In this document: piece after piece, positions 33,081-63,190 of the stretch
Position numbering within the stretch: position 1 is the stretch's first letter
How the letters are laid out: the number at the start of each line of letters is the position of its first letter
From: an uncultured Planctomycetales bacterium
Lineage (GTDB): Bacteria; Omnitrophota; Gorgyraeia; Zapsychrales; JANLHA01
NCBI GenBank assembly: GCA_964489065.1
Contig: CAZAXH010000001.1
Span: 21,106-85,105, forward strand
Direction of reading: 5' to 3'
DNA: 64,000 nt
Made by a program: the position numbers and the translations under genes
Notes under the pieces: model-generated
What the model was told of the DNA's origin: nothing
The model's database searches: none
Seen by the model: the letters and a program-made list of their open reading frames with translations, nothing else

Positions 33081-33240
33081 CGCCCATAGGCGTGGCCCCC
33101 AGAAACAATGCGCTCCGCGGAATAATCTGCTTCGTAACATACGCGCGGAGATCCCCGGAGCAACAGACCTTATTAACCTCCCGCGTTCATCCACGGGCAT
33201 GCCCGTGGTCGTCTGCAAAGGCGGATAAAAATCCATGTCA
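33081..33240. repeat. Copy A of a ~150-nt repeated leader element (second copy at 59929-60080)
   Basis: Direct alignment of the two regions shows long identical runs (caat.cgct.cgcggaat.atc..gcttc.taaca.acg.g......ccccg.a...aga.gaccttattaacct..cgc.ttcatcc.cgggcat.ccc). Identity is about 72% over ~150 nt. The core contains an 18-nt perfect palindrome ccacgggcatgcccgtgg (33191-33208). Confidence 0.6.
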
Positions 33241-41463: not shown

Positions 41464-42432
41464 TTAGATAAAATCCAAAACTTCCCGGAGTACTTTTTCA
41501 TATTGCCGGCACATGGCCGCGGCGTTAAACGGGAACGTCCGCATCCCGGGTTGAAGCCGCGCGTACTGGTCCCGCATTTTAAATAAAGCGACCGGGAAAG
41601 ACCCGGCCGTGTATTCAATCCCCGCCTCCCGGCACGTTTCCACGACCCCGCCCCCTTCGTTGATATACAACACCGGCAGCCCGCAACAGGCCCCTTCCAA
41701 CTGGTGCATCCCGCAAGATTCCCAACGCGCGGCCGTCAAATACACGTGATGAGACCGCAACTCCTGCGCCAGTTCGGTGCCGAAAAGTGGGGGCACAGTG
41801 CGCGTATACCGGAACTCGGTTCCAGCCGGATATCTACCGACATACGTGAACTGGAACTGGCCCTGCATCCAAGAATCCTCAAGCAGTTTATCAAAATAAC
41901 GGTAAACATCAATGCCTTTCATGGGATTATTCGACCAGTGATGCGTGACGATTTTCATCGGCTCCCCGTTGTGCCAAGGCCGATACCCCTGAGCATGAAA
42001 TATATTTTCATCCGGGCCGTTGCGCACCACGTAGGCAGGCACCAGGGGATCCAGTCCTTTCTGCCTGTAATATTCCCTCACCCATTCGCTGATAAACACA
42101 AAGGCATCAGCCACTTTATTCGCCTCCAGCCGCAGGCGGTCGATGTGGCGGGTGTTTTTTGCCCGGTCAGTTTCGTTAATCCGATGAATCACCTTGACAC
42201 GCGGATGAGTCTTTTTATATCTTTTGATGTCCTTGTGCGTGAACGTCCCGCTTCCGGGGTGAGGATTGATCAGGATAATCACATCCAGCCCTTCCTCTAA
42301 ATGATGGACAACGCGCGCGCCCTTCCCTTCAAAATATTTCTTAAACGAGATCAAGAATTGGTTCCCCCCGCCCCAGGGGCCGTCTGTAATCTCATTGCCT
42401 AAAGCGATCTTTAACTCTTTAAAAGTGTCCAT
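41464..42432 (-). CDS. Putative GT-B-fold glycosyltransferase (family unclear)
   Basis: 322 aa. The C-terminal GLPVLYINEGGGVVE resembles the GT1/GT4 donor-binding region. The N-terminus is not recognisable. Confidence 0.4.
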   Translation of the reverse strand: MDTFKELKIALGNEITDGPWGGGNQFLISFKKYFEGKGARVVHHLEEGLDVIILINPHPGSGTFTHKDIKRYKKTHPRVKVIHRINETDRAKNTRHIDRLRLEANKVADAFVFISEWVREYYRQKGLDPLVPAYVVRNGPDENIFHAQGYRPWHNGEPMKIVTHHWSNNPMKGIDVYRYFDKLLEDSWMQGQFQFTYVGRYPAGTEFRYTRTVPPLFGTELAQELRSHHVYLTAARWESCGMHQLEGACCGLPVLYINEGGGVVETCREAGIEYTAGSFPVALFKMRDQYARLQPGMRTFPFNAAAMCRQYEKVLREVLDFI

Positions 42433-48739: not shown

Positions 48740-50626
48740 TCACACCTCAACCAGATCTTTCTGCATCTCAAATTGCAGTTGATAAAGCTTCCGGTACAAG
48801 GGGCTGATCGCAAGCAACTCGGTATGCCGGCCCATAGCCTCGATCCGCCCTTTATTCAAAACCACAATCTTGTCAGCGTGCAGGATCGTGGAAAGCCGGT
48901 GGGCGATGACCACGGCGGTGGAACATTCCAGCACGCTGTCAATGGCTTTCTGCACCTGTTGTTCCGACTGCGTGTCCAGAGCGCTGGTCGCCTCATCGAA
49001 AATCAGGATGTCCGGCTTGGCCACAATCGCCCGGGCGATGGCGATTCGTTGCCGCTGTCCGCCGGAGAGACGCACCCCCCGGTCCCCGATAAACGTATGG
49101 TAACCATCGGGCAAATCACAAATAAATTCGTGGGCATTGGCGAGCTTGGCCGCGGCGATAACATCACTCTGGGAAACCCCCTCCCGGCCGAAGACAATGT
49201 TGTTCGCCACGGTGTCATTGAACAACAAACTTTCCTGGGGCACAACTCCAAAAATTTTCCGGTAAGGAGATATCTGGACATCTTTTAAATCAACCCCATC
49301 AATCGTGATCGTACCCTGCTGCGGGTCATAAAAACGCAGCAACAGATCTGTTAAAGTTGACTTACCCGCTCCGCTGGGGCCGACAAAAGCAATGACCTCC
49401 CCTTTCTTAAGCTCAAAATTGATCCGATCAAGGGAAAAGTCTTCGTTGGGCAAATAGCGGAACAGAACATCCCGTACCTGAATCCTGTCTTCAAAGTCTC
49501 TCTTCATAATGGTGCCATCGGGCACTTGGGAGCGTTCCTTGAACAATTCGTCCAGACGCTCATAAGAAGCTAAGAGCGCTTGAGTCCAAGTCAGGCACAC
49601 GGCAAATTTATTCACGGGTTCAATCAAAAGCCGGCCGACGTAAATATAGAGCAAAAACCCCTGCAGGGAGAGGCTCCCTTTCATAAGCTGAAAGGCGGCG
49701 ACCAGGAATATTCCCACAAACGCCGTGGCATCAAGAAACTCGCGGGCATAGGGCTCAACTTGACGGATAAGGCCTTCCCTAAAATCAGCCTTGCTCACTT
49801 CCGCCAGGTCATGGTCAAGCTGACGCAGTTCAAAGGACTCGACCCCGAAAGATTTTATCGCACGGATGTTCGTCATCATTTCCTGCAAAGTAGACGTAAA
49901 ATCCGCAATCCTGTCGAAGAAACACCGGGTCGTCCGGCGAATAGGTCGTTTGATGACTTCCGTCAGCCCGAACTGTAGCATGATCATCCCGAAAGCACAC
50001 AGCGTCATCCAGACACTTGTACTGATGAGATACATACTGTACATGGCAATCAAAATTCCATGATGGATATAGCCTCGCACAAGCGGGCCCAAGCCCTGAC
50101 CGGTGTTCTGGGCGTCCTGGACGACGCGGGAAATCAACTCCCCGGATTTCTGCCGGTTGTAAAACCCGATATTCAGGCTCAAAAGGTGCTGAAGGACGTC
50201 TTTTCGTAGTTTTTCCGTTGAGCGAACACGGATCCAGCGAGTCATCACCAACGCCAGATAATTGATAAGGGCCGACAAAAAAACGCTCACCAGAAAAAGC
50301 GACAGCATAAAAATCAGCATATTCCAGAAATCAGTCCCTTCAAAAGGCACGAACCGGGCCAACAACGCTTTAACCTTGGTGCCAATGTTATTCAGGTTGA
50401 AAACATTGGTCTGTGGCAATGCCTCCGCCGCTTCCATGGCCGCCCCGCCCTTATAGTCCGAGATAAGCTGCACGACCCCCGACACAATAACCGGCTGGAC
50501 CACCGTAAAAAAATTGCCCACAAGAGTAATTACGATCAGCGCGCAGATCTGTTTCCAGAGCGGACGGGCGTAGTCCTTCAACAATTTGGCAAAAGACACC
50601 TTCCGGATAAATTTTTTTTTCTTCAT
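48740..50626 (-). CDS. ABC transporter, fused permease/ATPase (type I exporter, MsbA-like)
   Basis: 628 aa. Six transmembrane helices with Walker A GPSGAGKST, signature LSGGQRQRIAIARAI and Walker B ILIFDEATSALD. Confidence 0.85.
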   Translation of the reverse strand: MKKKKFIRKVSFAKLLKDYARPLWKQICALIVITLVGNFFTVVQPVIVSGVVQLISDYKGGAAMEAAEALPQTNVFNLNNIGTKVKALLARFVPFEGTDFWNMLIFMLSLFLVSVFLSALINYLALVMTRWIRVRSTEKLRKDVLQHLLSLNIGFYNRQKSGELISRVVQDAQNTGQGLGPLVRGYIHHGILIAMYSMYLISTSVWMTLCAFGMIMLQFGLTEVIKRPIRRTTRCFFDRIADFTSTLQEMMTNIRAIKSFGVESFELRQLDHDLAEVSKADFREGLIRQVEPYAREFLDATAFVGIFLVAAFQLMKGSLSLQGFLLYIYVGRLLIEPVNKFAVCLTWTQALLASYERLDELFKERSQVPDGTIMKRDFEDRIQVRDVLFRYLPNEDFSLDRINFELKKGEVIAFVGPSGAGKSTLTDLLLRFYDPQQGTITIDGVDLKDVQISPYRKIFGVVPQESLLFNDTVANNIVFGREGVSQSDVIAAAKLANAHEFICDLPDGYHTFIGDRGVRLSGGQRQRIAIARAIVAKPDILIFDEATSALDTQSEQQVQKAIDSVLECSTAVVIAHRLSTILHADKIVVLNKGRIEAMGRHTELLAISPLYRKLYQLQFEMQKDLVEV

Positions 50627-50634: not shown

Positions 50635-51249
50635 CTATTTATGTTTATCTGTCACCGAATTCCCGTGCTTCACATAATTATACAGCGGCACAGGCAAATG
50701 ATATATTTTATCCTTATCAATCCGTTTGAAAAGGTCTGTATCTTCAAATATTTTCTTCTCTGAATTATAGGACCCAATAATCTCCAGATACGATGTGCGG
50801 AACATCAGCCCGCAGGCAATCCCGTTCTCCTGAAAGGATTCTTTGGATAAAATGCGTTCCTCATTGTCGGTGATAAAATAATCGCAGGATACCGCCACGT
50901 ATTTCGGGTTAAATTTCAGAAAATTATACAGCATATACAAAAACGGCGGCTGGACATAATCGTCCGAATCCACCCGGATGAAATATTTCCCCCGGGAATT
51001 GGCCACTCCGATCTGGGCACTGGCGCCGATTCCCAGGTTTTCTTCATTTTTAATAATCCGGATATCCCCCGCCTTAATGAATGTGTCCAGCGCCTTAATG
51101 GAGTCATCCGTGCTACAGTCATCCACCACCACGATCTCATAATGGGATCTATCCAGGTCCTGATTGAGAAGTGACCGGATACACCGGCGGATCAAAGTGC
51201 CGTAATTATGATTCACCACAATCACAGAGATATCAATAAGTCGCATCAT
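50635..51249 (-). CDS. Glycosyltransferase family 2
   Basis: ISVIVVNHNYGTLIRRCIRSLLNQ...EIVVVDDCSTD...VDSDD. 204 aa. Confidence 0.8.
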   Translation of the reverse strand: MMRLIDISVIVVNHNYGTLIRRCIRSLLNQDLDRSHYEIVVVDDCSTDDSIKALDTFIKAGDIRIIKNEENLGIGASAQIGVANSRGKYFIRVDSDDYVQPPFLYMLYNFLKFNPKYVAVSCDYFITDNEERILSKESFQENGIACGLMFRTSYLEIIGSYNSEKKIFEDTDLFKRIDKDKIYHLPVPLYNYVKHGNSVTDKHK

Positions 51250-51276: not shown

Positions 51277-51999
51277 TCAATCCTCGGCCACATTAATAAA
51301 CTTTTCCATCTCCCGGGACTGCTGGCAGAGGGTGCGCAATTCTTCCGGCGTGGCGCTGCAGACGTGATCCGGCCCCACCAGCCCCTTATTAAGAGTAAAG
51401 TGCTTTTCGATAATCCTGGCACCCCGGGCCACGGCCACCAGAGCCGCCTCAATGCCGATCGTGTGATCGCTGAAGCCGTCGTAAGGAGTGGCTTTAAACG
51501 AAACCGGCAAATGAATATCCTTATACTCCGCGGGATATTTCGCCACGCAATAAAGGTATTTCGCTTTATCATAGGCGTAGGGGACATCATTATCCTCCCA
51601 GAAACCCAATGAAATAAAAACCTCTTTGCCGGTCGCGAATATTTTTTTACACAACTTTTTCTCCTGCACGGTGCGGCTCGCGATTTTATAACGTTTCACT
51701 TGCAGCCGCTCCATCCATTCAAAGCGATCTTCATCAAATACCGAAGCCATAAACTCGATGCCTTCTTCGTCACACCAGGTCTTAAGCCGCCGGGCGTCCT
51801 CAAACCCAAACTGCACGGTCAGGGCAAACCGGTAATTTTCCTCGTCCGGATAGCTCCCCTGCGGCCCGAAGATCTTCGCCGGGTCGTAAAACTGGAACTT
51901 GGCGACATCGGCCCCGCACTGTTTGGCCTGTTTGATCAACTCGTGGGCCAGATGAATACTGCCGTTATGGTTAATTCCAATTTCCGCGATGATAATCAT
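51277..51999 (-). CDS. NeuB-family (N-acetylneuraminate synthase-like) TIM-barrel protein lacking the C-terminal SAF domain
   Basis: MIIIAEIGINHNGSIHLAHELIKQAKQCGADVAKFQ is the NeuB/PseI N-terminal signature. At 240 aa it is ~100 aa shorter than full NeuB homologs. Confidence 0.7.
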   Translation of the reverse strand: MIIIAEIGINHNGSIHLAHELIKQAKQCGADVAKFQFYDPAKIFGPQGSYPDEENYRFALTVQFGFEDARRLKTWCDEEGIEFMASVFDEDRFEWMERLQVKRYKIASRTVQEKKLCKKIFATGKEVFISLGFWEDNDVPYAYDKAKYLYCVAKYPAEYKDIHLPVSFKATPYDGFSDHTIGIEAALVAVARGARIIEKHFTLNKGLVGPDHVCSATPEELRTLCQQSREMEKFINVAED

Positions 52000-52085
52000 A
52001 TTTGTTACCCCTTATTACAAAAATCACTAACCCCATTATTTATATAATTTACACTGAAAACCTTCTATTCCCATCATTTTCTTTT

Positions 52086-52784
52086 CTAAAGCACTTTTCT
52101 GTCGCCTGCCGGAGCATTAATCACATAAAGATAATAAAAAGGGCCTAAAGATGCGGCATGCAACCACAAGGGTTTCTTGGTCCAAGGAACATTCATTTTA
52201 TCGAGTATCTTATCGTAATTCCAAATATACGAGTGCCGGGCAAATTTCTTGTCCGGCCGCTCCAACCCTTTCTTAACCTCTTCCCTCGTTTTGCCAGAAA
52301 CATCACCGTGAATGCCTTCAATAAACGGTTCAAGCAATAATGTCATATTTGAAACACGTACAAGTTCCTGCATCGTCCATTCCACAACGCTTCCATCCGG
52401 GATATGATCCAGCACCGATAAAGTAAATGCCACATCAAAACTCTTCTCGCCAAACTGCCGCAGGCTTTGCTCATCCCCCACAATCCCGCGGAATGTCGGA
52501 TATTGTCCCGACAAGGTCAAAACACACTCATTGACTTCTATGCCAACAGTATGAACAGCCGGAAGTCTATCCATAAAATATTTCAAATTTCCACCGCTGG
52601 CACACCCGAGTTCCAAAATATTGGAAAGAGATTGGGGATCCCGGGACTGGATCACTTTTTCATATATAATATGGGCATTACGCGCTGGGATTGTTAAATT
52701 TTGCCAATAGGTTTTGGCATCTTTAACTTTCCTGTGCATATAGGCTTTTTTAAGCCCCTCGAAGACCTGCATGCCCGCCTCCAT
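52086..52784 (-). CDS. Class I SAM-dependent methyltransferase
   Basis: Motif I LELGCASGGNLKYF and post-II FDVAFTLSVLDHIPD. Confidence 0.75.
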   Translation of the reverse strand: MEAGMQVFEGLKKAYMHRKVKDAKTYWQNLTIPARNAHIIYEKVIQSRDPQSLSNILELGCASGGNLKYFMDRLPAVHTVGIEVNECVLTLSGQYPTFRGIVGDEQSLRQFGEKSFDVAFTLSVLDHIPDGSVVEWTMQELVRVSNMTLLLEPFIEGIHGDVSGKTREEVKKGLERPDKKFARHSYIWNYDKILDKMNVPWTKKPLWLHAASLGPFYYLYVINAPAGDRKVL

Positions 52785-52829
52785 TATAAAAGATATGAAT
52801 CTATAATAGCCCTAATATCCTGAATATTT

Positions 52830-54062
52830 TCACACGAGACGTTTATATTGGATTTCTTTCGCCTCAAAAAAATCCGTGGCTAACATATTCGTATTTAAAT
52901 CAATGTTCTTGCTGACCTTATGAATTTTAATATAATCCCCGGCTGACCGGACCTCAATGTGATTCCGAAAATATGCGTTCAGGTACCGGCACATCCCTGC
53001 CGGGTCATCTTCCCGTTTATAATTCACGAAATTTTTCCTGACACGATGCATGCCGTCAAAAAACCATTTATCAAAACCCAGCCAAGGGGGAAGAAACCCC
53101 CAAATCGGCTCTAGGGCTGTTCCGGAAAAAGGAATGTCCAGAACGTCATAAAGCTGGCGTGCTTCCAGTTTCGCCGAAAATTTTTCCAAAAACGTCCGGC
53201 TGACCAGATGCTGGCAGGAACAGCCGAACCACTCTAAATCATCATCTTCATGAAAAATAATTTTGTCTTTCTCTATAAATTCCGGGACGACTTTTTTCAA
53301 AGAACGCCGGTACGTGTTTTCATAAATGACCTTACCGGATATCGGGAACTCCCGCAAATGACGTAAAGAGCGCAGGCTCTGCCGCAGCCTTTTAAAAACC
53401 GGGTCAAAGACATCCGGGACATGATCCTGGGTGACAAAAGAACAATCCTGGCTCCAGGAAGAAAAAAGTCTTTTAAATTCCGGGTCCCGGCAGAAGACGT
53501 CGTAAACTTCCCTAATTCTCTCATTATGATAAAAATCCAGTTCGGTAGGGTCAGGGTCCCGTGTATTGTAGTTTAAGAAAAGCCCCCGGGAGATCCGCCG
53601 TTTTTCATGGCCGGACGACAGAAAATGGATCCCCTTCTCTTTTAAGAAAGCCAGCGCTGTAGATAAAACATTGGCGCGGGTTAAAAGGGTGCCTTCCTGG
53701 ATCATAAAAGTATAATCGTAGGCCCGCCATTTTCCCGTGCGGATGAATTTATACCACGCGCCGGAATCCAAGGCATGATCATTTTCAAAATGCATCTCCG
53801 TCACGGCTTTGCCTTTCACCTGCCGAAGAATATTTAAGACGCGATCATCCGCCGGGCTAAGCTGAACGTTAATGCCGTATTTTTCCGCCAGGCGGAAATA
53901 CGCCGCGTAAGATGTCTTCTTAAGACACTGGCCGTCCCCGTCTTGAAAAAGGGAAAAAATATCATAGTCCTGAAAATCCTGCAAAGCCAAAGTCAACAGC
54001 GTTGACATGATGAGCCAGGGTTTATGATGACAGCATAACGCTATGGCCACGCGTGCGCTCAT
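52830..54062 (-). CDS. Hypothetical protein (possible novel glycosyltransferase)
   Basis: I recognise no motifs. ATGA overlap with the upstream gene. The start is taken at MSARVAIAL. Confidence 0.4.
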   Translation of the reverse strand: MSARVAIALCCHHKPWLIMSTLLTLALQDFQDYDIFSLFQDGDGQCLKKTSYAAYFRLAEKYGINVQLSPADDRVLNILRQVKGKAVTEMHFENDHALDSGAWYKFIRTGKWRAYDYTFMIQEGTLLTRANVLSTALAFLKEKGIHFLSSGHEKRRISRGLFLNYNTRDPDPTELDFYHNERIREVYDVFCRDPEFKRLFSSWSQDCSFVTQDHVPDVFDPVFKRLRQSLRSLRHLREFPISGKVIYENTYRRSLKKVVPEFIEKDKIIFHEDDDLEWFGCSCQHLVSRTFLEKFSAKLEARQLYDVLDIPFSGTALEPIWGFLPPWLGFDKWFFDGMHRVRKNFVNYKREDDPAGMCRYLNAYFRNHIEVRSAGDYIKIHKVSKNIDLNTNMLATDFFEAKEIQYKRLV

Positions 54063-55417
54063 GCGGCCTGCCTCTCTTTCGATTTTTTCCGGACCGCGGT
54101 TTTCACCGCATCCCAGACGCGCCGGCTGCACAGGCCGTCGCCATACCCCATATAATTCCGGATAAATTCCTGATTCTTCTCTCGGTCCATCTCAAACCTC
54201 TTCAAATGCATTTGCGGAAGCCGCTCAATCACATCCTCAATCTCCCAGGTTTCGATCACCCCGGGATAATTAAACTGCGACCCTTCCTCGGCGGAAAACC
54301 AGAAACGATGCGCCTCGTTGATAAAAAATTCCTTAGGGACGTTAATATTCAGGCAATACACCCCCGCGTAAATAGCGGCCAAAGAGGCGAAACTGTAATA
54401 CATGACGCACATACGACTGACAGTCAGTAATTCTTTCAGCATGGGCGGATTCTGCCGTTTTTCATCATCCCAGACCACCAAATCGGCCTGTTCTTTGACA
54501 TAGTCCGCGACCGGGAATTTCATCCTCGGTTTCACCACAAGATACAGATTATTCCGGGAGCAAAACTGCCGGATCGATTCAAAAACTTTCGCTTCATTCA
54601 TGCCCCGCGCCAAAAACCGGCAGCTTAAGGGGTCCTGTATAATACGCAACAAATTCCAACTTTTTTGAACAAAATCTCTAATGATATAATTTTTTTTATC
54701 ATGCGCATACGAACCGTCCGCAGCCATCGCTGTATTTGCGTAAAGCCCGCAAAAGGCTCTCTCCCATGCGGAGGAACGGTTACGGTTGCAATACGGGAAC
54801 GGCAGATAAAGAAGGACACCTTTCCCTGATGGCAACCCGTATTTCACCCGCACGGCGTCCGGATCAATGGTTTTAAACGCGTCAAACTCCGCATTCCCGG
54901 AGACCAGAATACGGGTCTTATCCGGATAAAGATAGTCCGTATATTCCGGGTGAAAATTTTTCAGGAACGCCTCCCCTTTTTCCGCGTAACTCTCGCTGTG
55001 GACAAGAAAAAGTTCTTTATTCCGCCGTTTTTTCAAAAAACCCAATTTCGGTATATAAAAAAAGTTGTCCGGTCCCGTCATCAGCGTCACCCAGGTGAAA
55101 GGAAATTCATCTAAAGACGCATCCGGGAGAGAAAATTTAAAGGGACAAATAGAAACGACCACGTCAATATTTCTTCCCTCTCTTAGTTTCTTTTCCAAAT
55201 CCTCCGGCCCCTCGAAAACGATCCCCGGCGGCCGCCCCAATCCCGGGAATTCAGGGATATGCTCGGTATCCGGGAAAGAAAAACTTTTGCTCCCCAAACG
55301 GGGAACGCTGTAGTCGTGCCAGCATTCCACACCATAGCCCCGCCGCAACGCCTCCTGAATGACCGGCGTGTAATAACGGTAATAATTCGTCCTATAAACT
55401 AAAAATACGACCCGCAT
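54059..55417 (-). CDS. Hypothetical protein (GT-B-like / capsule-synthesis-like?)
   Basis: 452 aa, soluble. Weak resemblance to TagF/Capsule_synth-type two-domain transferases. No secure motif. Confidence 0.4.
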   Translation of the reverse strand: MRVVFLVYRTNYYRYYTPVIQEALRRGYGVECWHDYSVPRLGSKSFSFPDTEHIPEFPGLGRPPGIVFEGPEDLEKKLREGRNIDVVVSICPFKFSLPDASLDEFPFTWVTLMTGPDNFFYIPKLGFLKKRRNKELFLVHSESYAEKGEAFLKNFHPEYTDYLYPDKTRILVSGNAEFDAFKTIDPDAVRVKYGLPSGKGVLLYLPFPYCNRNRSSAWERAFCGLYANTAMAADGSYAHDKKNYIIRDFVQKSWNLLRIIQDPLSCRFLARGMNEAKVFESIRQFCSRNNLYLVVKPRMKFPVADYVKEQADLVVWDDEKRQNPPMLKELLTVSRMCVMYYSFASLAAIYAGVYCLNINVPKEFFINEAHRFWFSAEEGSQFNYPGVIETWEIEDVIERLPQMHLKRFEMDREKNQEFIRNYMGYGDGLCSRRVWDAVKTAVRKKSKERQAA

Positions 55418-56078
55418 GATCCCTCCACATGTTTTGTGCGATCAAAAAATCTTCTTCCGTATCAATATCAAACAACTCCAGTTTATCATTCAACTCCACC
55501 AGATGAACTTCCTGCCAGTCCCAGTAACGGCCGTGCTGAAAAAAATAGTCCTTGGGAAAAAAATACAAAGCGTGGGCGAACTCATAGACCGGCTCCACGG
55601 TCTTGGTATTGATCGTCTGAAGCGACAAAGAAAAATTCAAAGGGTTCCGCTTCATGTCGAAATAAAAATTATGGCGTTTCACGACGCCAAACGCCGATTC
55701 CCAATTATGGTCACAGCATTGTTCCAGGAAATCAGCAATGGTTTTGACTTTTAAGAAGGGCAAACACCCGTTGATAATCAAAAAATATTGATAAGGAAGC
55801 TCCTTTAAAAAAGACAAAATCTCCGTGATGGGGCCGTCGATCATCACCGACTCCCGGCTGCGCTGGACAAACGGCACGCCGTGCGCCCGGCATTTGTCCG
55901 CGAAATCCTGTTCGTACCCGGCGAAAAACGTGTTGTCCCCCAAGGCCCGCAGCTTTTTCAGCACGATATCGGTGAGGGTCGTGTCCCCGAACGGCCGGGT
56001 CATCTTTTGAGGACAGCGCTGGCTCTGTTTCCGGCCGAAGGAAAAGACCCCGATTGTTTGCCGCTCAACGCGCGCCAT
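55392..56078 (-). CDS. Cytidylyltransferase-family protein (acylneuraminate cytidylyltransferase-like)
   Basis: N-terminal IGVFSFGRKQSQRCPQKMTRPFGDTTL resembles the ArGGSKgipkKN.r.l.g.pL motif of CMP-sugar synthetases. 228 aa. Confidence 0.5.
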   Translation of the reverse strand: MARVERQTIGVFSFGRKQSQRCPQKMTRPFGDTTLTDIVLKKLRALGDNTFFAGYEQDFADKCRAHGVPFVQRSRESVMIDGPITEILSFLKELPYQYFLIINGCLPFLKVKTIADFLEQCCDHNWESAFGVVKRHNFYFDMKRNPLNFSLSLQTINTKTVEPVYEFAHALYFFPKDYFFQHGRYWDWQEVHLVELNDKLELFDIDTEEDFLIAQNMWRDHAGRIFSL

Positions 56079-57027
56079 TCAAAAACTCCTTGAAAGATAT
56101 GTTAGGAATTCCATCGACAGGCAAAGAATATTCAAACGGTTCATAAATATTGACAAAATTCATGCCCTGGTACTTCAGGACTTTTTCCAAAGCGGCAAAC
56201 TCATGCGGCGGCCTCATAAAAGGGCGCTTGTTTTCTTTAAAATTGCCGCTAAACGCCCGCCGCGCCTTTTTAAAAAATTTCCGGTAATGCGCCATGGATT
56301 TAAACGTATAACAGGCGGCATACTCCATACTGCCCAGCATGGACATGTCCATCCCGAGGAAAAACACGGTCCGGAACCCCAAAAAATTCAAAACCGGAAA
56401 AAGGGCGATCGCCGCGGAATTCAGGAAACTGTAGTCCTTGACCCGGGGGATATCCCCGCTCTCATCCAAAGTGAAGTAGTCCCCGAGATCGAACTCCGCG
56501 TCCGCAGGCCCGATCCCGCAGGTATAAACCGGATTGGCGCCGTGGAAGCTCTCCCGGTAAGCCAAAAAATTATCTCGAAAAGCCAAGCAGGCCGTTTCCG
56601 GGAACCGGGATAATAAGTCCAGCGGGGAATCACGCAAAAAGACTTCCGTCTTGTAACGAAACCGCTTGTGCACACCGCGTTCCGGCCGGAAATCCTCGAA
56701 GAACATCCGAAAATTCTCTTTCAGGAACTGGTACTCATCCTGGTATTCATCCCGTATGAGGCCGGTCAAATCAATATCCGCCAAAAACGACTGGAAGACC
56801 ACATGCTGAAACGCGTTGGATTTGCATTTTTCCAAATAAAACATAATATAAAAATCCGGCATTAAACCGGCCTTGATGAAATACGGCGTCAGGGCCTTGC
56901 TTTCCAAAAACACCGTATAACGCGCACGGTCCACCCGTTCCAAAGGCAGCTGGTTTTCAACGATCGAAGGCCCGCCGAAGAACATCAGCGCGTCGCGCCC
57001 CGCATAAGTATTTTTCAGCCGTTTCAT
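56065..57027 (-). CDS. DUF115 / MptE-like (Maf, motility-accessory-factor-type) putative nonulosonate transferase
   Basis: GRDALMFFGGPS, the GxGPS motif near the N-terminus that defines DUF115/6-hydroxymethylpterin-diphosphokinase MptE-like proteins. Confidence 0.55.
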   Translation of the reverse strand: MKRLKNTYAGRDALMFFGGPSIVENQLPLERVDRARYTVFLESKALTPYFIKAGLMPDFYIMFYLEKCKSNAFQHVVFQSFLADIDLTGLIRDEYQDEYQFLKENFRMFFEDFRPERGVHKRFRYKTEVFLRDSPLDLLSRFPETACLAFRDNFLAYRESFHGANPVYTCGIGPADAEFDLGDYFTLDESGDIPRVKDYSFLNSAAIALFPVLNFLGFRTVFFLGMDMSMLGSMEYAACYTFKSMAHYRKFFKKARRAFSGNFKENKRPFMRPPHEFAALEKVLKYQGMNFVNIYEPFEYSLPVDGIPNISFKEFLNGAR

Positions 57028-58076
57028 GACGCAGCAATCAACTCCTTTGCCAAAGGGGTGCCGCGGCGGATATCCTTCACGGCCCTGCGCCCCAAAATCT
57101 TGTCCAGGGCTTTCGGCGGCAGCCCATAGCCCGGGCGGATCGACCGGACATTATCCGGCGTTAAACGCTCCCCGCGTTTAATATCCTGAACGGCAAAAAG
57201 AGAGCGGCGGAACACCCGGCTCTTTTTTTCCCTGTTGGTTTTCATATACGTCGCTGTCCCCAGCGCCTGTTCCGTGATCCGGATATTCTCCACCAGCATT
57301 TTAAACTCCCCCGGCTCGGTGGAAAAAAAACTGTCCGGTGTTTTGTGTTTCCGGGTCAAAGTAAAATGTTTTTCGATCATAACCGCGCCCAGGCACACCG
57401 CGGCCACTGACGCGGCCAAAGTCAGCGTGTGGTCCGAGAGCCCCACCGGGACTTTAAACCGCCTGGCCATGTCCGGGAGGACCTTCAAATTCATCTCCTG
57501 CGGTTGCGCCGGATAATTGCTGACGCATTTAAGTAAAAGAAGATCGCGACTGCCTGCCCGGCGGGCGGCCGCGACCGCATCCTCAATCTCTTCTCTCTCC
57601 GCCATCCCCGTTGACAAGATAAGCGGTTTACCGGTCCGGGCGGCGTACGCGATCAAAGGGATATCCACCAGCTCAAAAGAAGCGATCTTGTGCACCGGGA
57701 CAGCGAGCGTTTCCAGAAAATCAACGGAGGAAGCGTCAAAAGCGGTGACAAAAAACCCGAGGCCGAGGTCATCCGCCACCGTTTTCAATCTTTTAAGCCA
57801 GGACCAGGGGGTATACGCTTTCTGATAAAGCTGATACAGGGTCTGTCCGCCCCATTCCGGATGATGCACGCGAAAATATTTATTACGGGCATCGAGCGTC
57901 ATAGTGTCGGGAGTGTACGCCTGAAACTTCACCGCGTCCGCCCCGCATTCTTTTGCCTTGCGGATCATGGCCGCCGCGCGGGTAAAACTCTGCCCGTGGT
58001 TCGCGGAAATCTCCGCTACGATATACACCGGACATTGGTCTCCCACCAGTCTGTTCCCAATCTTAAACGGTTTCAT
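57024..58076 (-). CDS. pseI: Pseudaminic acid synthase / N-acetylneuraminate synthase family (full length with SAF domain)
   Basis: KIGNRLVGDQCPVYIVAEISANHGQS, and C-terminal SAF/antifreeze-like region RRSLFAVQDIKRGERLTPDNVRSIRPGYGL. 350 aa. Confidence 0.8.
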   Translation of the reverse strand: MKPFKIGNRLVGDQCPVYIVAEISANHGQSFTRAAAMIRKAKECGADAVKFQAYTPDTMTLDARNKYFRVHHPEWGGQTLYQLYQKAYTPWSWLKRLKTVADDLGLGFFVTAFDASSVDFLETLAVPVHKIASFELVDIPLIAYAARTGKPLILSTGMAEREEIEDAVAAARRAGSRDLLLLKCVSNYPAQPQEMNLKVLPDMARRFKVPVGLSDHTLTLAASVAAVCLGAVMIEKHFTLTRKHKTPDSFFSTEPGEFKMLVENIRITEQALGTATYMKTNREKKSRVFRRSLFAVQDIKRGERLTPDNVRSIRPGYGLPPKALDKILGRRAVKDIRRGTPLAKELIAAS

Positions 58077-58088: not shown

Positions 58089-58550
58089 TTAGAAATCCCC
58101 ATCATAAGCATACGTTACCACCTCTTTGTCCTCGGAAAAACACCGGTACCCGGCTTTCCTGAATGCTTTGACAGACGCCTCGTTCCTTTTGATAATCCTG
58201 GCGATAACCGTGACCGCCCCGATCTCCTTCAAAAACTGTTCTGTCCCGGCCCGGATGACCCGGGATCCCAGCCCCTGCCCCAGACAGGCGGGATTGAGAT
58301 GAACGCTCACCTGCGCGCCCTGCCCCTCCGGCTCAAAACGGATGACCCCGACTTTTTCTTCCCCCCGGCGGGCGATGTAAATCCGGCAACGGGAATCGGA
58401 CATTTTCTGTTCAAACCACCGCTGATGTTCATCCCAGGGGACCACGGCGGTGTTAAAAAAGTTTTTACGGACGTCCGGGTGATTACGCCACTCCCAGATA
58501 TCCCGCATGTCCTCTTCCCAAGCCAAAGATATAACAATGTCTTCCTTCAT
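58089..58550 (-). CDS. pseH: GNAT N-acetyltransferase, PseH-like (UDP-4-amino-4,6-dideoxy-N-acetyl-beta-L-altrosamine N-acetyltransferase)
   Basis: Small GNAT (..VGVIRFE...LGQGLGSRVI..). Its position between pseI and an LmbE deacetylase in a pse cluster supports the call. The start is taken at MKEDIV (58550). Confidence 0.6.
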   Translation of the reverse strand: MKEDIVISLAWEEDMRDIWEWRNHPDVRKNFFNTAVVPWDEHQRWFEQKMSDSRCRIYIARRGEEKVGVIRFEPEGQGAQVSVHLNPACLGQGLGSRVIRAGTEQFLKEIGAVTVIARIIKRNEASVKAFRKAGYRCFSEDKEVVTYAYDGDF

Positions 58551-59227
58551 CGGACCGCCCTCACCACCTGAAAAGCTTCCGCGTACATGCATCCAGAAAC
58601 GCTTCCCCACCGCTGCGCGATGGCCAACAAACTCTTTACAGAACGGGGATGCGGCGCCGGCCGCATTTCCGATCGGTAACACCGCATCGCTTTTATTTTC
58701 TGCATAATAGTCCTCTCGACATCCATGTAAAGCGTCGGGTCAAAACTCCGGGGATACGCCCACTCCGAAGAAGACGGGACTTCGAATGCGTAAATGTCCC
58801 TGACCGGCTCTCCCTTCAGGGGCCGGCAGGCGGTCATCACCGCGTTATACGTGATACGGTGGTCAATGTTCAAATCTCCCCAATGATGCGTAAAAACCGT
58901 GTCGGGCCGGACCCGCCGTTTGATCTCTTCCAGACGCTGGACAATCCCCAAAAGGGAAACCGTGTCCAGTTTGTTGTCAGGAAGGTCGAGCTGATGCACA
59001 TCCTTCACGCCTAAGACCTGGTTGGCGGCCGTCATCTGCTCTTTCAATTTTTTCTTTTCCCGGGCCTGTTTCGCGGAAGCGCCGTCGCTGTAACGCGCGG
59101 TCACGCCTTCCCCCAGAATGACCGTGGTCACGCCATGCCCTTCTTGAACGAGCCGGGCGACCGCCGCCCCGCAGCCCAGCACCTCATCATCCGGGTGAGC
59201 CGCAACGACCAAGATTTTCTTTTTCAT
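58547..59227 (-). CDS. PIG-L/LmbE-family N-deacetylase
   Basis: ILVVAAHPDDEVLGCGAAVARL is the LmbE HPDDE zinc-binding motif. Confidence 0.8.
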   Translation of the reverse strand: MKKKILVVAAHPDDEVLGCGAAVARLVQEGHGVTTVILGEGVTARYSDGASAKQAREKKKLKEQMTAANQVLGVKDVHQLDLPDNKLDTVSLLGIVQRLEEIKRRVRPDTVFTHHWGDLNIDHRITYNAVMTACRPLKGEPVRDIYAFEVPSSSEWAYPRSFDPTLYMDVERTIMQKIKAMRCYRSEMRPAPHPRSVKSLLAIAQRWGSVSGCMYAEAFQVVRAVR

Positions 59228-59919
59228 GCCGCCTCCTTTAGGCCTATTTCGACCCGTGCGGTCAGCCGCCGGCCTTTCTTCTCCGCCGCAAAGAATTCAA
59301 ACCGCAACGCCCTGGTTTCCAGAAAAGCCCGGGGGTAACCTTCTGCGTCCAGCATGCGGATCCTATCATAGGCTTCCGGCACGGACGCCACCGGGATAAG
59401 GCTGCTTTCTTCCGGCGTCCTCCGGCGAAAAACGACCGCCTTGCCCTTCTGGGGCCGAAGGCGTATCTTGCCGCGGATAATTGCCGGCATCATACTGCCA
59501 AAAATAACAGCCGTGGCCCGCCGGTAAATTTCCTCGGCCGATCCCCGCAAACACAGCGCGCGCTTCAGATACACCGGCCCGGCGTCGAACTTTTCCGTAA
59601 CCCGGATCGCGGTGATTTTTGTCGACCGGTGTCCCCGGACAATCAGATTCTGCAAAGGGCTCCCTCCCCGTCCGTACGGCAAGTCTGTCATATGAAACGC
59701 GACGCACGGATACGCCGCATAAATATCCCGGGGGATCTTCCAGGACCAATGCGGGAAAAATATAAAATCCGGGTTGAACATTTTGACCGACGCGAGGCAT
59801 AAGTGCTCCCGGCCTGAAATCAAACGCATGGAAACGTCCGGGTTGTGTCTCCGGAAATTCCGTGCCGCTTCAATATTCCAACTTTTAACCGTCGCGATGA
59901 TAATCTTTTTCTTTTTCAT
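59224..59919 (-). CDS. Formyltransferase-family protein (Fmt N-terminal-domain-like)
   Basis: 231 aa. Formyl-transferase fold pattern (...FFPHWSWKIP..., HMTDLPYGRGGSPL). Commonly found in nonulosonate clusters. Confidence 0.55.
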   Translation of the reverse strand: MKKKKIIIATVKSWNIEAARNFRRHNPDVSMRLISGREHLCLASVKMFNPDFIFFPHWSWKIPRDIYAAYPCVAFHMTDLPYGRGGSPLQNLIVRGHRSTKITAIRVTEKFDAGPVYLKRALCLRGSAEEIYRRATAVIFGSMMPAIIRGKIRLRPQKGKAVVFRRRTPEESSLIPVASVPEAYDRIRMLDAEGYPRAFLETRALRFEFFAAEKKGRRLTARVEIGLKEAA

Positions 59920-59928
59920 GGAGCCTCG

Positions 59929-60080
59929 CGCCCACGGGCGTGTTGCCTATTAACAATTCGCTTCGCGGAATCATCCGGCTTCTTAACACACGTGCCGTCC
60001 CCGAAAGAGAAGACCTTATTAACCTTTCGCTTTCATCCCCGGGCATACCCCCGGTCTTCGGCGAAGAGGGATGAAAACTA
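59929..60080. repeat. Copy B of the ~150-nt repeated leader element (first copy at 33081-33240)
   Basis: Aligns to 33081-33240 at about 72% identity, including the shared block gaccttattaacct. Here it is fully intergenic, between the pseG stop (60078) and the formyltransferase start (59919). Confidence 0.6.
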
Positions 60081-61091
60081 CCGAAACTGCATCGCCCTCT
60101 TGTTAACCACCGCGTCCACGATCCGGAACGCGCCCTGGCCGTCCACGCAGGCTTGCCCGGCAGCGGCTAACCTTTGACGCGGCGCTTTATCTTTATGCTT
60201 TCTTAAAGCCTCCCGCAACCGGGCGGACACGCCGGGATCACCGATTCTACCGCAATCCTCAATAACGCCCTTATGCTTTAACCCGCGGATGTTCGCGGCC
60301 TGATTATCCGCCACACACACCGCCAAGGCCGGGACCCCGCACCGGGCCAATTCATACAAAGTCTGTCCACCCGCCGAAACCGCCAGATCCGCTTCCAGCA
60401 TGCGGGCCTTCATCTGTTGGGCATCCAGGGCCGCGATAAACTCGGTCTGCCCGTCCGCCTGTCCAAAAAAATCGGCGGCAGGCGCACAACCGTGTCCTAA
60501 AACAACCGTCTTCCTGGCAGAAGGATACTCCGCTTTGACCGTCTGATAACAAAGCGGCGTAGCCTGTTTCATATCGCTGCCGCCCAGCGTCAACAAAATA
60601 TGCCCGACACTTTCGCTAACAGACCTTGGGGGGACGTCCCAGAACACCAAGCGTAAAGGCACATAACCTTCCCCCAGCAAATAAACAGTCCCTTCCCGGG
60701 CTGGGTATGAAAACTGTTCCGGATAGGCCGCGGCGTTGACGACAAACCCGGACGGATAAGATAACCGCTCATAGTCATCCAGGAAAACAGCGACACGCAC
60801 GGCTTCCGACACCGTGCGGTAAACAGCTTCCGGCGCCCAATAGGAATCGATCACAACCACATCCGGCTCCGCGGCGGCCAGAAGCCTGCCCAAATGATTG
60901 CCTTCGAACCAGCATCCCACATCACTGTTCATGCCCTTCGTGAACGCTGCCACCGACCCATCACCGTTAATGACCAGGTGCGGGGTAAAATTCCTGGACG
61001 CAAAAGCCTGGTATAAAGCCGCACACCGGGCGATATGCCCGAACCCGAACTGCGCTCCCCCTTCCGTGAGGATCAAAACTTCGCTCTTCAT
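60078..61091 (-). CDS. pseG: UDP-2,4-diacetamido-2,4,6-trideoxy-beta-L-altropyranose hydrolase (PseG, GT28-like)
   Basis: MKSEVLILTEGGAQFGFGHIARCAALYQAF is the PseG N-terminal pattern. C-terminal GT-B domain. 337 aa. Confidence 0.75.
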   Translation of the reverse strand: MKSEVLILTEGGAQFGFGHIARCAALYQAFASRNFTPHLVINGDGSVAAFTKGMNSDVGCWFEGNHLGRLLAAAEPDVVVIDSYWAPEAVYRTVSEAVRVAVFLDDYERLSYPSGFVVNAAAYPEQFSYPAREGTVYLLGEGYVPLRLVFWDVPPRSVSESVGHILLTLGGSDMKQATPLCYQTVKAEYPSARKTVVLGHGCAPAADFFGQADGQTEFIAALDAQQMKARMLEADLAVSAGGQTLYELARCGVPALAVCVADNQAANIRGLKHKGVIEDCGRIGDPGVSARLREALRKHKDKAPRQRLAAAGQACVDGQGAFRIVDAVVNKRAMQFR

Positions 61092-61823
61092 TTATGGCGT
61101 CCTGGCCTCGCCGGCCATTTGATATTTCATGTAAAACTCTGCTTTCAGGAAATCCTGTTCATAATCAATTTCAGTGGCATAACGCTCGTCATGAACGAGA
61201 AGAGTCACCCGCTCTCCCATATAGGCGTGCACTTTTAAAACTCCGGCCGCCGCCAGCAATGTCTCTCTCTTTAAAACGATAACGGCCCCGTCCAATAAAT
61301 ACAGCGGGGGCAGATCCTGCATGCGGTAAGCGTGCGCCGACGGCATAAAAGGACGGACCAACCCGCTCTCGGGATCCAAGATTTTCATCCATTCCGGCCG
61401 CTGGCCAATTGTGTACGCAGTGGCCACGGCGGTGAAATCAGGGTGGGCCAGCAGTTTTTCCACCGCCTCATCAATCTCCCCCTCCTTGCGGATGGGAACA
61501 TTCGCCTGCAGGGCCACAACAACGTCAAAAATTTTTCCTGTCGCCTTTTCTTGCACTTGTAAGGCATGACGAAGAGCATCGTCGAACGGGGACGTGTCCC
61601 GGGCCAATTCCGCCGGCCGCATCACGACCGCCGCGCCACACTTTTGCGCGACCGCCGCAATCTGATCATTATCGGTGGATACAACCACCTTGTCACAAAG
61701 ACAGCTCTTGAGCGCCATCTCGACCGCATACGCCATAAGCGGCTTGCCGCAAAGGGGCCGCACATTCTTCATCGGCGCGCGTTGGCTGCCGCCCCGGGCG
61801 GGGATCACGCAAAGCACATTCAT
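61092..61823 (-). CDS. pseF: Pseudaminic acid cytidylyltransferase / CMP-nonulosonate synthetase family
   Basis: VIPARGGSQRAPMKNVRPLCGKPLMAYAV is the CMP-NeuAc synthetase-family N-terminal motif. The start is taken at MNVLCV (61823). Confidence 0.8.
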   Translation of the reverse strand: MNVLCVIPARGGSQRAPMKNVRPLCGKPLMAYAVEMALKSCLCDKVVVSTDNDQIAAVAQKCGAAVVMRPAELARDTSPFDDALRHALQVQEKATGKIFDVVVALQANVPIRKEGEIDEAVEKLLAHPDFTAVATAYTIGQRPEWMKILDPESGLVRPFMPSAHAYRMQDLPPLYLLDGAVIVLKRETLLAAAGVLKVHAYMGERVTLLVHDERYATEIDYEQDFLKAEFYMKYQMAGEARTP

Positions 61824-63190
61824 GAGCTCACCTGTTCGCAATGCTTCGTTTTATTCCATGCCCCCAACTCCGCGATCATTTCTTCCTGCGCGGCATAAAG
61901 CTGGGCATCCGACAAATCGGAAAAGTTAACCCGGATCTGTTCACCCTGTTCACCCAGGTTCAGGACATACTCCTCTTCATCCAGGATCTTACCCTGTGCC
62001 ATCGCCAGACGGTAAAGCTCCGTTCCCGGATAGGGGGTCGCAAAGAAAACAACTTCCGGAGCCAATTGAAGATCTTTACAGAAATCAACCGTCTCCCGGA
62101 TCGTTTCATGATTTTCTCCGGGGAGGCCGATCATAAAAGAACAGTCCGCCCATCCCATATGTTTCTGAGTCAGCCGGACAGCGGCTTTGGCGTCCTCAAC
62201 CCGTACCCCTTTCTTCATCACGTCCAGCATCCGCTGGCTCCCGGATTCTATGCCGTAGCAAAGCAATACGCAGCCCGCTTCCGCCATGGCTGCAATTAAA
62301 GATTCCGTCATAAGATTAACCCGCCCCGTACACCCCCACGTAACAGTTCCGCGAAACGTCCGGGTCATCAGGGCGCAGAAGTCCGCCACAAATTTTTTGT
62401 TCAGACAAAACTCGTCATCGATAAAATGGACGTACGGAACCCCGTAACGGCTCCTCAAATATTTTATCTCCTCAACAACATTCTCCGGAGAGCGGTGCCG
62501 GTACCCGTGCCCCATAAAATCGTGATAACAATAAATACATTGATACGGGCAGCCGCGGGTGGCGCTGATGTTCATGGAAAGGCCACCTGCGTCCTCTCCC
62601 CGGCCGTCACTCCATTTATGGCGGTTCGGAGCCCCGACAGGGTTTTTTAGATAAATATCCATCGGAAAAAGATCCCAGGCCGGGAAGGGGATTTCATCTA
62701 AATTTTTAATCGGCGGCCGTGCGGGGTTTTTCCGGATATTCCCGTCCGCCTCTCTAAACCATATTCCCGCCACCGTCCTTAGATCCCTCCTCCCTTCAAG
62801 CGCTGACAAAAGATCCACAAACGTTTCTTCCCCCTCCCCGATACAAACAATATCCGCCGGAGTATTACCCATGATGATATGCGGGATGGAGGTCCCGACA
62901 CTCCCCCCGACCATGATTTTTTTATCCGGCGCCGTGCTTTTAAGGAACTCGATCAGCCATTTGACATATTTATACACCGTAACGATCGCGCCGATACCGA
63001 CGGCATCAAATTCCGCCGCCCGGAGCTTTTCCTGAACGGTCTGACGGTCCCAACGGAAAGCGTTGATATCCATCACCTCCACCTCATGGCCGGCGTTTCT
63101 GGCGACCGCGGCTAAATACCCCAGCCCCAAGGGCAGGACATTAGGCCGGGACCATTCACGGATCGGAGGGTTGATTAATAATATTTTCAT
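61820..63190 (-). CDS. B12-binding domain radical SAM protein (class B)
   Basis: MKILLINPP...IMVGGSVGTS (B12-binding). CxxxCxxC ATRGCPYQCIYCYH and a radical SAM core. 456 aa. ATGA overlap with pseF. Confidence 0.8.
   Translation of the reverse strand: MKILLINPPIREWSRPNVLPLGLGYLAAVARNAGHEVEVMDINAFRWDRQTVQEKLRAAEFDAVGIGAIVTVYKYVKWLIEFLKSTAPDKKIMVGGSVGTSIPHIIMGNTPADIVCIGEGEETFVDLLSALEGRRDLRTVAGIWFREADGNIRKNPARPPIKNLDEIPFPAWDLFPMDIYLKNPVGAPNRHKWSDGRGEDAGGLSMNISATRGCPYQCIYCYHDFMGHGYRHRSPENVVEEIKYLRSRYGVPYVHFIDDEFCLNKKFVADFCALMTRTFRGTVTWGCTGRVNLMTESLIAAMAEAGCVLLCYGIESGSQRMLDVMKKGVRVEDAKAAVRLTQKHMGWADCSFMIGLPGENHETIRETVDFCKDLQLAPEVVFFATPYPGTELYRLAMAQGKILDEEEYVLNLGEQGEQIRVNFSDLSDAQLYAAQEEMIAELGAWNKTKHCEQVSS

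Follow-up and report, generated by a model that had tools for sequence, protein, structure and literature searches.

A stretch of 64,000 nucleotides from an uncultured Planctomycetales bacterium, placed in the Omnitrophota by GTDB (contig CAZAXH010000001.1 of assembly GCA_964489065.1, positions 21,106 to 85,105; hereafter the window), encodes an ordinary pathway for pseudaminic acid (Pse) activated with cytidine monophosphate (CMP). Directly downstream of the last gene of that pathway lies a cassette of eight genes built around a short NeuB-family synthase without a SAF domain, here called sNeuB. With middling confidence, we read this region as the core of a conserved, self-contained module that would make a second 3-deoxy-2-ulosonic acid, convert it to a CMP-sugar and attach it to an acceptor, alongside the ordinary CMP-Pse pathway. 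This reading draws on the domain and fold assignments of the encoded proteins, the conservation of the gene set across phyla, fusions that join a glycosyltransferase to a cytidylyltransferase and an active-site signature of the SAF-less enzymes. The original prediction, made from the letters of the sequence, had offered a second, non-standard keto-sugar acid as one possibility, and this is still the best reading. In the order of transcription, the canonical synthase PseI is followed by a DUF115-like protein (DUF115L), a cytidylyltransferase-like protein (CTPL), two orphan proteins (Orph2, then Orph1), a methyltransferase, sNeuB, a small soluble glycosyltransferase of family 2 (GT2) and an ABC exporter.

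sNeuB matches the Pfam NeuB family with high significance (PF03102; E = 3.6e-52, 177.6 bits against a cut-off of 22.1, residues 21–235 of the 241-position profile). The same Pfam scan returned no SAF match and the protein ends five residues past the NeuB domain, which bears out its description as a 240-residue NeuB-family TIM barrel without SAF. The 120 best homologues among 5.8 billion proteins are all 234–272 residues long, carry PF03102 alone and are 66–93% identical. As these homologues are equally short and the next gene starts only 28 nt after the sNeuB stop codon, the short length is native and not due to truncation. A truncated pseudogene was considered and ruled out: hundreds of homologues have the same length, identity is about 70% across phyla and there is no space for a SAF remnant. 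An unrelated aldolase, which the original prediction had named as one case that would overturn it, was checked and ruled out as well, because the NeuB domain and its metal and phosphoenolpyruvate (PEP) ligands are intact. Numbered as in the Neisseria meningitidis enzyme NmNeuB, sNeuB keeps E25, K53, Q55, K129, S132, S154, S213, H215, H236 and D247, and nine of these positions (the set without Q55) are kept in all 14 close and in 23–26 of 26 distant SAF-less sequences.

One pair of active-site residues differs. Gly133–Glu134 of NmNeuB corresponds to Arg109–Thr110 in sNeuB, with the metal and PEP ligands retained. Arg followed by Thr, Ala or Ser occupies these positions in 36 of 40 SAF-less sequences, whereas Glu or Asp is found at position 134 in 54 of 58 SAF-bearing sequences and Arg at position 133 in none of the 58. 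In a neighbour-joining tree (without bootstrap) of 98 NeuB-domain sequences from the fetched loci, a single clade without SAF-bearing members holds 37 of the 40 sequences that have no C-terminal extension, and the close relatives of sNeuB form a sub-clade of 14 inside it. Judged by sequence, sNeuB is a member of a distinct SAF-less NeuB lineage with an active-site signature of its own, and the label "truncated synthase" does not fit it. It falls below the cut-offs of both equivalog models (TIGR03569, 189.8 against 399.65 bits; TIGR03586, 139.4 against 340.25 bits).

To our knowledge, the biosynthesis of sialic-acid-like sugars has always been found to proceed via a two-domain synthase. With the known NeuB, LegI and PseI enzymes (NmNeuB, 1xuu; Campylobacter jejuni PseI, 8h2c), sNeuB shares the TIM-barrel NeuB domain, the metal-binding His pair, the PEP-binding Lys and Ser residues, Asp247 and an accompanying cytidylyltransferase gene. 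Unlike them, it has no SAF domain and hence no Arg314 supplied in trans, has Arg–Thr/Ala/Ser in place of Gly133–Glu134 and belongs to a separate clade. In NmNeuS, the SAF (antifreeze-like, AFPL) domain caps the barrel of the partner subunit and is reported to contribute active-site residues, notably Arg314 (PMC11339185). Arg109 of sNeuB may stand in, in cis, for this Arg314. About 30% of NeuB-family sequences, mostly from environmental organisms, have no SAF domain and no assigned function (PMC8208679). The best PDB match of sNeuB is also SAF-less, a "sialic acid synthetase" from Leptospira borgpetersenii (6NCS; family profile E = 4e-35). The relation is moderate, and unlike sNeuB, 6NCS has Asp at the Glu134 position and does not have the Arg.

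ORFs called around relatives of the short synthase, in 80 genome loci and in several metagenome contigs, were compared with the proteins of the window. About 18 independent loci carry a synthase at least 50% identical to sNeuB; several of the contigs are short, so the partner counts that follow are minima. These loci span Omnitrophota, Alphaproteobacteria, Methylomirabilia, Planctomycetota, Acidobacteriota, Gemmatimonadota and Rhodobacterales, the nearest relatives of sNeuB being in Candidatus Omnitrophota metagenome-assembled genomes (MAGs), at 97, 93 and 88% identity. The small GT2 and the DUF115-like protein are each present in about 15 of the 18 loci, CTPL in about 14, Orph1 in about 13, Orph2 in about 12 and the ABC exporter in about 11, against 7–8 for a SAF-bearing, PseI-like synthase. 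GT2, CTPL, DUF115L and sNeuB occur in four loci (L002/L006, L013, L084 and L085) that have no SAF-bearing synthase within 10 kb. Conversely, PseF and CTPL are found together in L004, L008 and L012, and this is frequent in loci with long flanks. As the core occurs in those four loci without a SAF-bearing synthase, and as PseF and CTPL coexist elsewhere, the second set neither duplicates the Pse pathway nor is a piece of it. The set had been called a "partial" toolkit; it is instead a cross-phyla cassette that includes GT2 and the ABC exporter and can occur without PseI within 10 kb. A more fitting description is that of an uncharacterised but conserved cassette for an ulosonic acid around a lineage of SAF-less synthases, with two families of glycosyltransferase fold and one DUF115-like family that have no characterised member.

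Identity to the proteins of the window is graded, at about 70% for sNeuB, 67% for GT2, 55% for CTPL, 46% for the ABC exporter, 40% for Orph1 and DUF115L and 27% for Orph2, and this order is the same in every phylum. The gradient fits enzymes that would act on small molecules, followed by putative acceptor-specific transferases. Next to short-synthase modules in unrelated phyla (L023:3819-13453 and L085:15626-20255), we also observed a trio resembling WbpB, WbpE and WbpD, made up of a GFO/IDH/MocA oxidoreductase, a DegT aminotransferase and a GNAT acetyltransferase. The synthase of L023 has a D-2-hydroxyacid dehydrogenase after it; together with the trio, this gene is a possible clue to the precursor.

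CTPL, which had been described as a second CMP-sugar-synthetase-like protein, passes two Pfam gathering scores, namely NTP_transf_3 (PF12804, 32.2 against 27) and CTP_transf_3 (PF02348, 24.6 against 22.6). It retains the N-terminal R-x-x-S-x-R-x-P-x-K motif that binds cytidine triphosphate, in which R16, S19, R21 and K25 are invariant or nearly so. The closest solved relative of its family profile is the mouse CMP-Neu5Ac (N-acetylneuraminic acid) synthetase 1qwj (E = 2e-4, residues 13–213), and the other of the two PDB matches of the profile is the cytidylyltransferase 6oew. CTPL is 49–64% identical across phyla and falls far short of the PseF equivalog (TIGR03584, 21.1 bits against a cut-off of 205.7).

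The small GT2 (PF00535, E = 1.3e-30) is the tightest partner of sNeuB: it adjoins the synthase in about 15 of the 18 loci, at 65–97% identity. Its closest solved relative, 6P61 (E = 1.5e-44), is a glycosyltransferase that, like 6NCS, is a structural-genomics protein from L. borgpetersenii. Leptospira may have a counterpart of the trio of synthase, GT2 and CTPL; no functional report was found in a literature search on 6NCS and 6P61. In more distant loci, where the synthase is 38–47% identical (Chloroflexota, Pelagibacteraceae, Elusimicrobiota, Planctomycetia and Rhodospirillales), the neighbour of the synthase is a fusion protein of 450–600 residues whose N-terminal 200 residues align to the whole small GT2 and whose C-terminal half is CTP_transf_3. 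Such a fusion stands beside the short synthase in more than 12 distant loci, which ties GT2 to CMP-activation. In its conservation, the small GT2 behaves as a member of the biosynthetic core, unlike the variable enzymes that build polymers. Two roles would fit how unusually well it is conserved and how it is fused to a cytidylyltransferase: it may be a transferase working directly with a (labile) CMP-sugar, or an enzyme that cleaves a nucleotide sugar to feed the synthase with a free aldose. In known pathways, PseG and NeuC cleave nucleotide sugars to feed a synthase. Three of the distant loci, from Rhodospirillales MAGs (L039, 5591-13129; L040; L044), have a distant SAF-less NeuB of 240 residues and a GT2–cytidylyltransferase fusion of 586–599 residues flanked by flgE, for the hook, and fliF, for the M-ring; in these genomes the enzyme trio may serve the flagellum.

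The coordinates of the cassette and of neighbouring Pse genes are collected in Table 1. The ORF calls on the window place every described ORF at its stated coordinates, on the minus strand, and a second set of synthase, cytidylyltransferase and DUF115-type protein does exist beside a full Pse pathway. The prediction covered positions 51277–57027; GT2 and the ABC exporter lie outside this span, and the methyltransferase inside it had been missed. Packing of the cassette is operon-like, with overlaps of 4–26 nt and gaps of at most 86 nt. From PseI through DUF115L, CTPL and Orph2 to Orph1, consecutive genes overlap by 4, 14, 26 and 4 nt, and the ATGA by which the Orph1 start is joined to the Orph2 stop was read in the sequence, as had been noted for the two orphan ORFs. 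A promoter and terminator scan of the region found no convincing intergenic terminator and no clear operon boundaries.

Table 1. Genes of the cassette and selected genes of the adjoining Pse pathway, with positions in the window.
Feature	Coordinates	Strand	Length, assignment and proposed role
ABC exporter	48740..50626	-	628 aa; fused transmembrane and nucleotide-binding domains, MsbA/HepA type
Small soluble GT2	50635..51249	-	204 aa; PF00535, tightest sNeuB partner
sNeuB	51277..51999	-	240 aa; SAF-less NeuB-family synthase (predicted condensation of PEP with an aldehyde)
SAM-dependent methyltransferase	52086..52784	-	232 aa; accessory gene, fused to Orph1 in relatives
Orph1	52830..54062	-	410 aa; N-terminal GT-A core, candidate glycosyltransferase of a new family
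Orph2	54059..55417	-	452 aa; TagB/TagF- and BFO_1060-like GT-B, candidate ulosonic-acid (Pse) transferase
CTPL	55392..56078	-	228 aa; second cytidylyltransferase, NeuA/KdsB/SpsF type
DUF115L	56065..57027	-	320 aa; divergent MptE-like/DUF115, candidate CMP-ulosonate transferase
PseI	57024..58076	-	NeuB and SAF domains, canonical; closes the ordinary Pse pathway and adjoins the cassette on its upstream side
PIG-L-type deacetylase	58547-59227	-	Tailoring gene in the Pse pathway
Formyltransferase	59224-59919	-	Tailoring gene in the Pse pathway
B12-binding radical-SAM enzyme	61820-63190	-	Tailoring gene in the Pse pathway

The two orphan proteins have no Pfam match at the gathering cut-off. It had been suggested that they could be novel glycosyltransferases, and structure prediction agrees: in confident AlphaFold2 models, Orph1 has a GT-A core and Orph2 a TagF-like GT-B fold. 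The Orph2 model (pLDDT 93.1) has as its best Foldseek match in the PDB the teichoic-acid polymerase TagF (3l7j; E = 6.4e-8, TM-score 0.49–0.55), and UDP-GlcNAc (uridine diphosphate N-acetylglucosamine) 2-epimerases score similarly. Only 23 homologues of Orph2 were found in 5.8 billion proteins. Among 22 members of the family, 10 weakly match Glyphos_transf (PF04464, best E = 1.9e-5) and 9 weakly match BFO_1060_trans (NF046086, best E = 8.6e-6); Orph2 itself is below both cut-offs (11.8 against 22.1 bits and 20.6 against 200 bits, respectively). A NeuC-like hydrolysing 2-epimerase was rejected, as the sequence profiles match Glyphos_transf and BFO_1060 but never Epimerase_2, and the epimerase that the window does encode is a non-hydrolysing WecB.

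A precedent for Orph2 is BFO_1060/Tanf_01245 of Tannerella forsythia. Both are of similar length (about 445 residues in T. forsythia), have a GT-B/TagB-like fold, show weak NF046086 matches and have a methyltransferase nearby, and BFO_1060 is encoded directly downstream of a CMP-Pse locus (PMC5420450). BFO_1060 is genetically required for the transfer of Pse or legionaminic acid (Leg) onto N-acetylmannosaminuronic acid (ManNAcA) (PMC5420450). Unlike BFO_1060, Orph2 matches the NF046086 model over its C-terminal 80 residues only, and has V-V-K-P-R-x-K-F-P instead of HP. The family alignment has no conserved HP, and the HP and D/E-D/E-G motifs of bacterial sialyltransferases and BFO_1060 proteins were not found in it; its invariant residues are K296, R298, K300, D312 and E319, and the V-V-K-P-R-x-K-F-P motif is conserved.

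The ATG start of Orph1 is backed by a 100% identical database protein of 410 residues. Its model (pLDDT 94.2) matches TarS, SpsA, TarP and RmlT in Foldseek over the first 150–160 residues only (E about 3e-5, TMq 0.22–0.28). There are 65 PDB matches at E ≤ 1e-3, and the best 50 of these 65 are GT-A enzymes, whereas the remaining 250 or so residues resemble no solved structure. An invariant N94-D95...D99 could serve as the DxD motif. Orph1 was also tried as a divergent GT2 by sequence; this was rejected, with no Pfam or NCBIfam match, a probability of 0.4% in hhalign against the profile of the small GT2 and only noise in a profile search of PDB sequences. All 171 homologues found are annotated as hypothetical and have no Pfam domains. 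In relatives, Orph1 is fused to a SAM-dependent methyltransferase (L001/L005, L005:4667-6640, P0126, 640 residues; L007:422-2605). The separate methyltransferase of the window matches Pfam Methyltransf_11, 25 and 12 and, below the cut-off, the model of a Pse-associated methylase (TIGR03587, E = 4.8e-9). In L001/L005, four rmlA–D-like genes stand between the Orph1–methyltransferase fusion and the short synthase. The spore-crust sps operon of Bacillus subtilis likewise has rml genes with a GT2 (SpsA), a TagB-like protein (SpsB), a synthase (SpsE) and a cytidylyltransferase (SpsF) (PMC7439481). These are the enzyme classes of the cassette in the same combination. However, legionaminic acid is the product of SpsE, which does have a SAF domain, and sps has no DUF115 protein or ABC exporter.

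DUF115L had been described as a DUF115/Maf-type protein with a GxGPS motif. The ORF is present and has weak kinship to the MptE-like proteins, but the N-terminal Rossmann motif reads F-G-G-P-S (GGPS) and not strictly GxGPS, and the match to MptE-like/DUF115 (PF01973) is below the Pfam threshold (E = 0.0034, 17.6 bits against a cut-off of 34.6). As 9 of 11 and 15 of 23 members of the family match MptE-like (best E = 1.9e-11), DUF115L is likely kin to this superfamily. The family is small and highly divergent, with 58 representative clusters among 1.84 billion proteins, and its relatives are about 290–380 residues long, or about 320–365 for those found with phmmer; Maf proteins are about twice the size of DUF115L. 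With the Maf/DUF115 proteins, DUF115L shares the weak MptE-like match, the N-terminal GGPS, a central NSAAIAL...G-x-D-M-S motif and adjacent genes for ulosonic-acid synthesis. It differs in its tiny, distinct family, in having no flagellin context and in having no HMMER-detectable similarity to solved structures. Placing it with either Maf or MptE failed, as two family profiles found no match among PDB sequences, Maf included, at E values up to 10. Membership of the Maf family is not supported for this protein of 320 residues.

From these assignments, the catalytic steps, the pairing of donors with transferases and the acceptor can be predicted. sNeuB would condense PEP with some aldose or aldehyde, and CTPL would turn the product into a CMP ester, so that the synthase, the CMP-activating enzyme and GT2 would make up the biosynthetic core. 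Each of the two CMP-sugars would have a transferase of its own: DUF115L would transfer the CMP-activated ulosonic acid, and Orph2, the TagB/BFO_1060-like GT-B, would move the Pse derivative onto the growing lipid-linked glycan. A further sugar would be added and methylated by Orph1, with its GT-A core, and the methyltransferase. Carrying the product over the inner membrane would then fall to the ABC exporter. The exporter has the Pfam domains ABC_membrane and ABC_tran, its best NCBIfam matches are HepA_fam_ABC, MsbA_rel and MsbA (all under their cut-offs), and it comes after GT2 in about 11 of the 18 loci, at 42–91% identity; it is a probable flippase or exporter of the product.

The stretch from about 17.4 kb to the window end encodes many glycan genes, among them two Wzy_C proteins, Gmd, Bac_transf, a WecG/TagA-family protein, a non-hydrolysing WecB, an AsnB-like amidotransferase, GT4, GT2, YfhO, several methyltransferases, radical-SAM enzymes, a polysaccharide deacetylase and GT9. 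The original prediction had pointed to flagellin, pilin or S-layer protein as the target. No flagellin, pilin or flagellar gene is encoded in the 64-kb window, and only the distant Rhodospirillales relatives sit between flgE and fliF. Together with the surrounding glycan genes and the MsbA/HepA-like exporter, this points to a lipid-linked surface glycan, and not flagellin, as the probable destination of the product. A Wzy_C-type oligosaccharyltransferase could pass the glycan on to protein.

Several points weigh against the module as proposed. GT2 enzymes normally take nucleoside diphosphate sugars, not CMP-sugars, and in one locus (L008) the cassette is present without the small GT2. MptE itself is a pyrophosphokinase, and what connects DUF115L with glycosyl transfer is a Pfam match below the cut-off. 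sNeuB does not have the acidic residue at NmNeuB position 134, so its chemistry could differ. The conserved core in the 18 or so loci has no dedicated precursor enzymes among its members. The SAF/AFPL domain of NmNeuS is reported as essential for catalysis (PMC11339185, which cites Joseph et al. 2013). In B. subtilis, the TagB-like SpsB is dispensable for Leg transfer (PMC7439481).

The cassette might instead serve a route like that of teichoic acids. DUF115L would be a (pyrophospho)kinase and CTPL would make a compound, possibly phosphorylated, activated with cytidine diphosphate; Orph2 would be a TagF-like phosphotransferase or polymerase building a phosphodiester polymer on a linkage unit of N-acetylmannosamine (ManNAc) and GlcNAc, Orph1 and GT2 would decorate it as TarS, TarP and RmlT do, and the ABC protein would export it. 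We consider this unlikely. It does account for the best structural match of Orph2, TagF/TarL, and for the Glyphos_transf matches of 10 of the 22 family members, and Orph1 best matches three glycosyltransferases of wall teichoic acid, TarS, TarP and RmlT. The Pfam family to which DUF115L is weakly matched takes its name from a pyrophosphokinase, the invariant Arg109 of sNeuB could bind phosphate, and the window has WecB, a WecG/TagA-family enzyme, an initiating Bac_transf and YfhO, but ordinary Gram-negative glycans also use WecB and WecG. Moreover, the motif and closest solved relatives of CTPL are of the CMP-ulosonate synthetase type and not of the TagD or TarI/IspD type, the catalytic histidines of TagF have no invariant counterpart in the Orph2 family, and the core holds no phosphatase or recognisable sugar kinase.

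It is similarly improbable that sNeuB and CTPL are isozymes of the Pse pathway for a 6-deoxy-hexosamine that differs in its N-acylation or is C-methylated, and that the formyltransferase, deacetylase and B12-radical-SAM enzyme of the locus would help to make, so that the module would yield two Pse derivatives and no new sugar. The gene immediately before the cassette is pseI here and in L004, L005, L008, L012, L015 and L016, PseG-like and B12-radical-SAM genes recur in 6–7 loci and the methyltransferase is weakly similar to the Pse-associated methylase. However, at least four loci carry the core without a SAF-bearing synthase within 10 kb, sNeuB favours the NeuB/Leg-type model over that of PseI (189.8 against 139.4 bits) and the SAF-less clade, with its changed active site, stands apart from all SAF-bearing enzymes. 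Direct glycosylation of flagellin, pilin or S-layer protein by DUF115L as a Maf-type glycosyltransferase, one of the two readings in the original prediction, appears very unlikely. Maf enzymes can transfer several ulosonic acids, Kdo (ketodeoxyoctonic acid) included (bioRxiv 10.1101/2020.06.03.131540), the Wzy_C-family proteins of the window could be O-oligosaccharyltransferases and the Rhodospirillales MAGs place a distant short synthase and its fused partner among flagellar genes. Against this stand the 64 kb without a flagellin, pilin or flagellar gene, the short length of DUF115L and its relatives with no detectable similarity to solved proteins, and the conserved partnership with an exporter of the MsbA/HepA lipid/glycan type.

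If the favoured reading of a second ulosonic acid is taken further, the SAF-less clade, together with the GT2 and cytidylyltransferase dedicated to it (as two proteins or as a fusion), might make an undescribed ulosonic acid other than neuraminic acid (Neu), Leg, Pse, Kdn (ketodeoxynonulosonic acid) or Kdo. The starting aldehyde would be a non-canonical one, perhaps with a phosphate or with fewer carbons than a hexose, with the in-cis Arg replacing both Glu134 and Arg314 of the SAF domain. The sugar would be a widespread surface decoration in uncultured lineages (Omnitrophota, Acidobacteriota and Planctomycetota and, via the more distant loci, SAR11 and Chloroflexota), attached by the DUF115L and Orph1 families, which have no characterised member. 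We regard this extended proposal as tentative and somewhat doubtful. If a new keto-sugar is indeed made, the chemistry of bacterial surface glycans would be extended in hardly cultivated phyla. Sialic-acid-like sugars shape the recognition of bacterial surfaces by phages, hosts and predators. The locus gives the SAF-less NeuB group a testable context, consisting of a fixed set of partners, the fusion of GT2 with CMP-activation and a diagnostic switch from Glu to Arg. It also provides two high-confidence models of glycosyltransferase-fold proteins without characterised relatives.

Further observations concern the neighbouring genes. The upstream Pse pathway comprises a cut DegT/PseC-type aminotransferase, a B12-radical-SAM enzyme, PseF, PseG, a formyltransferase, a PIG-L deacetylase, PseH and PseI, the last of which exceeds its equivalog cut-off and has the SAF domain (TIGR03586, 455.9 against 340.25 bits). 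The tailoring genes (58547-63190) imply a modified Pse derivative, N-formylated and/or C-methylated. GC content falls to 0.44 at 52001-54000, over Orph1 and the methyltransferase, against 0.50–0.56 in the flanks, and part of the cassette may have been acquired horizontally. Genes of the type that make a ManNAc–GlcNAc linkage unit (Bac_transf, WecG/TagA, WecB), together with a YfhO-family membrane protein, are found at 21214-24729 and 33173-35650; these are features like those of teichoic acid or enterobacterial common antigen in a probable Omnitrophota genome. Three further proteins of the window, at 24733-25926 (397 residues), 35682-37256 (524 residues) and 41464-42432 (322 residues), have no Pfam or NCBIfam match. 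L003 and L004 also have the 322-residue protein near the cassette, as does, more distantly, L002.

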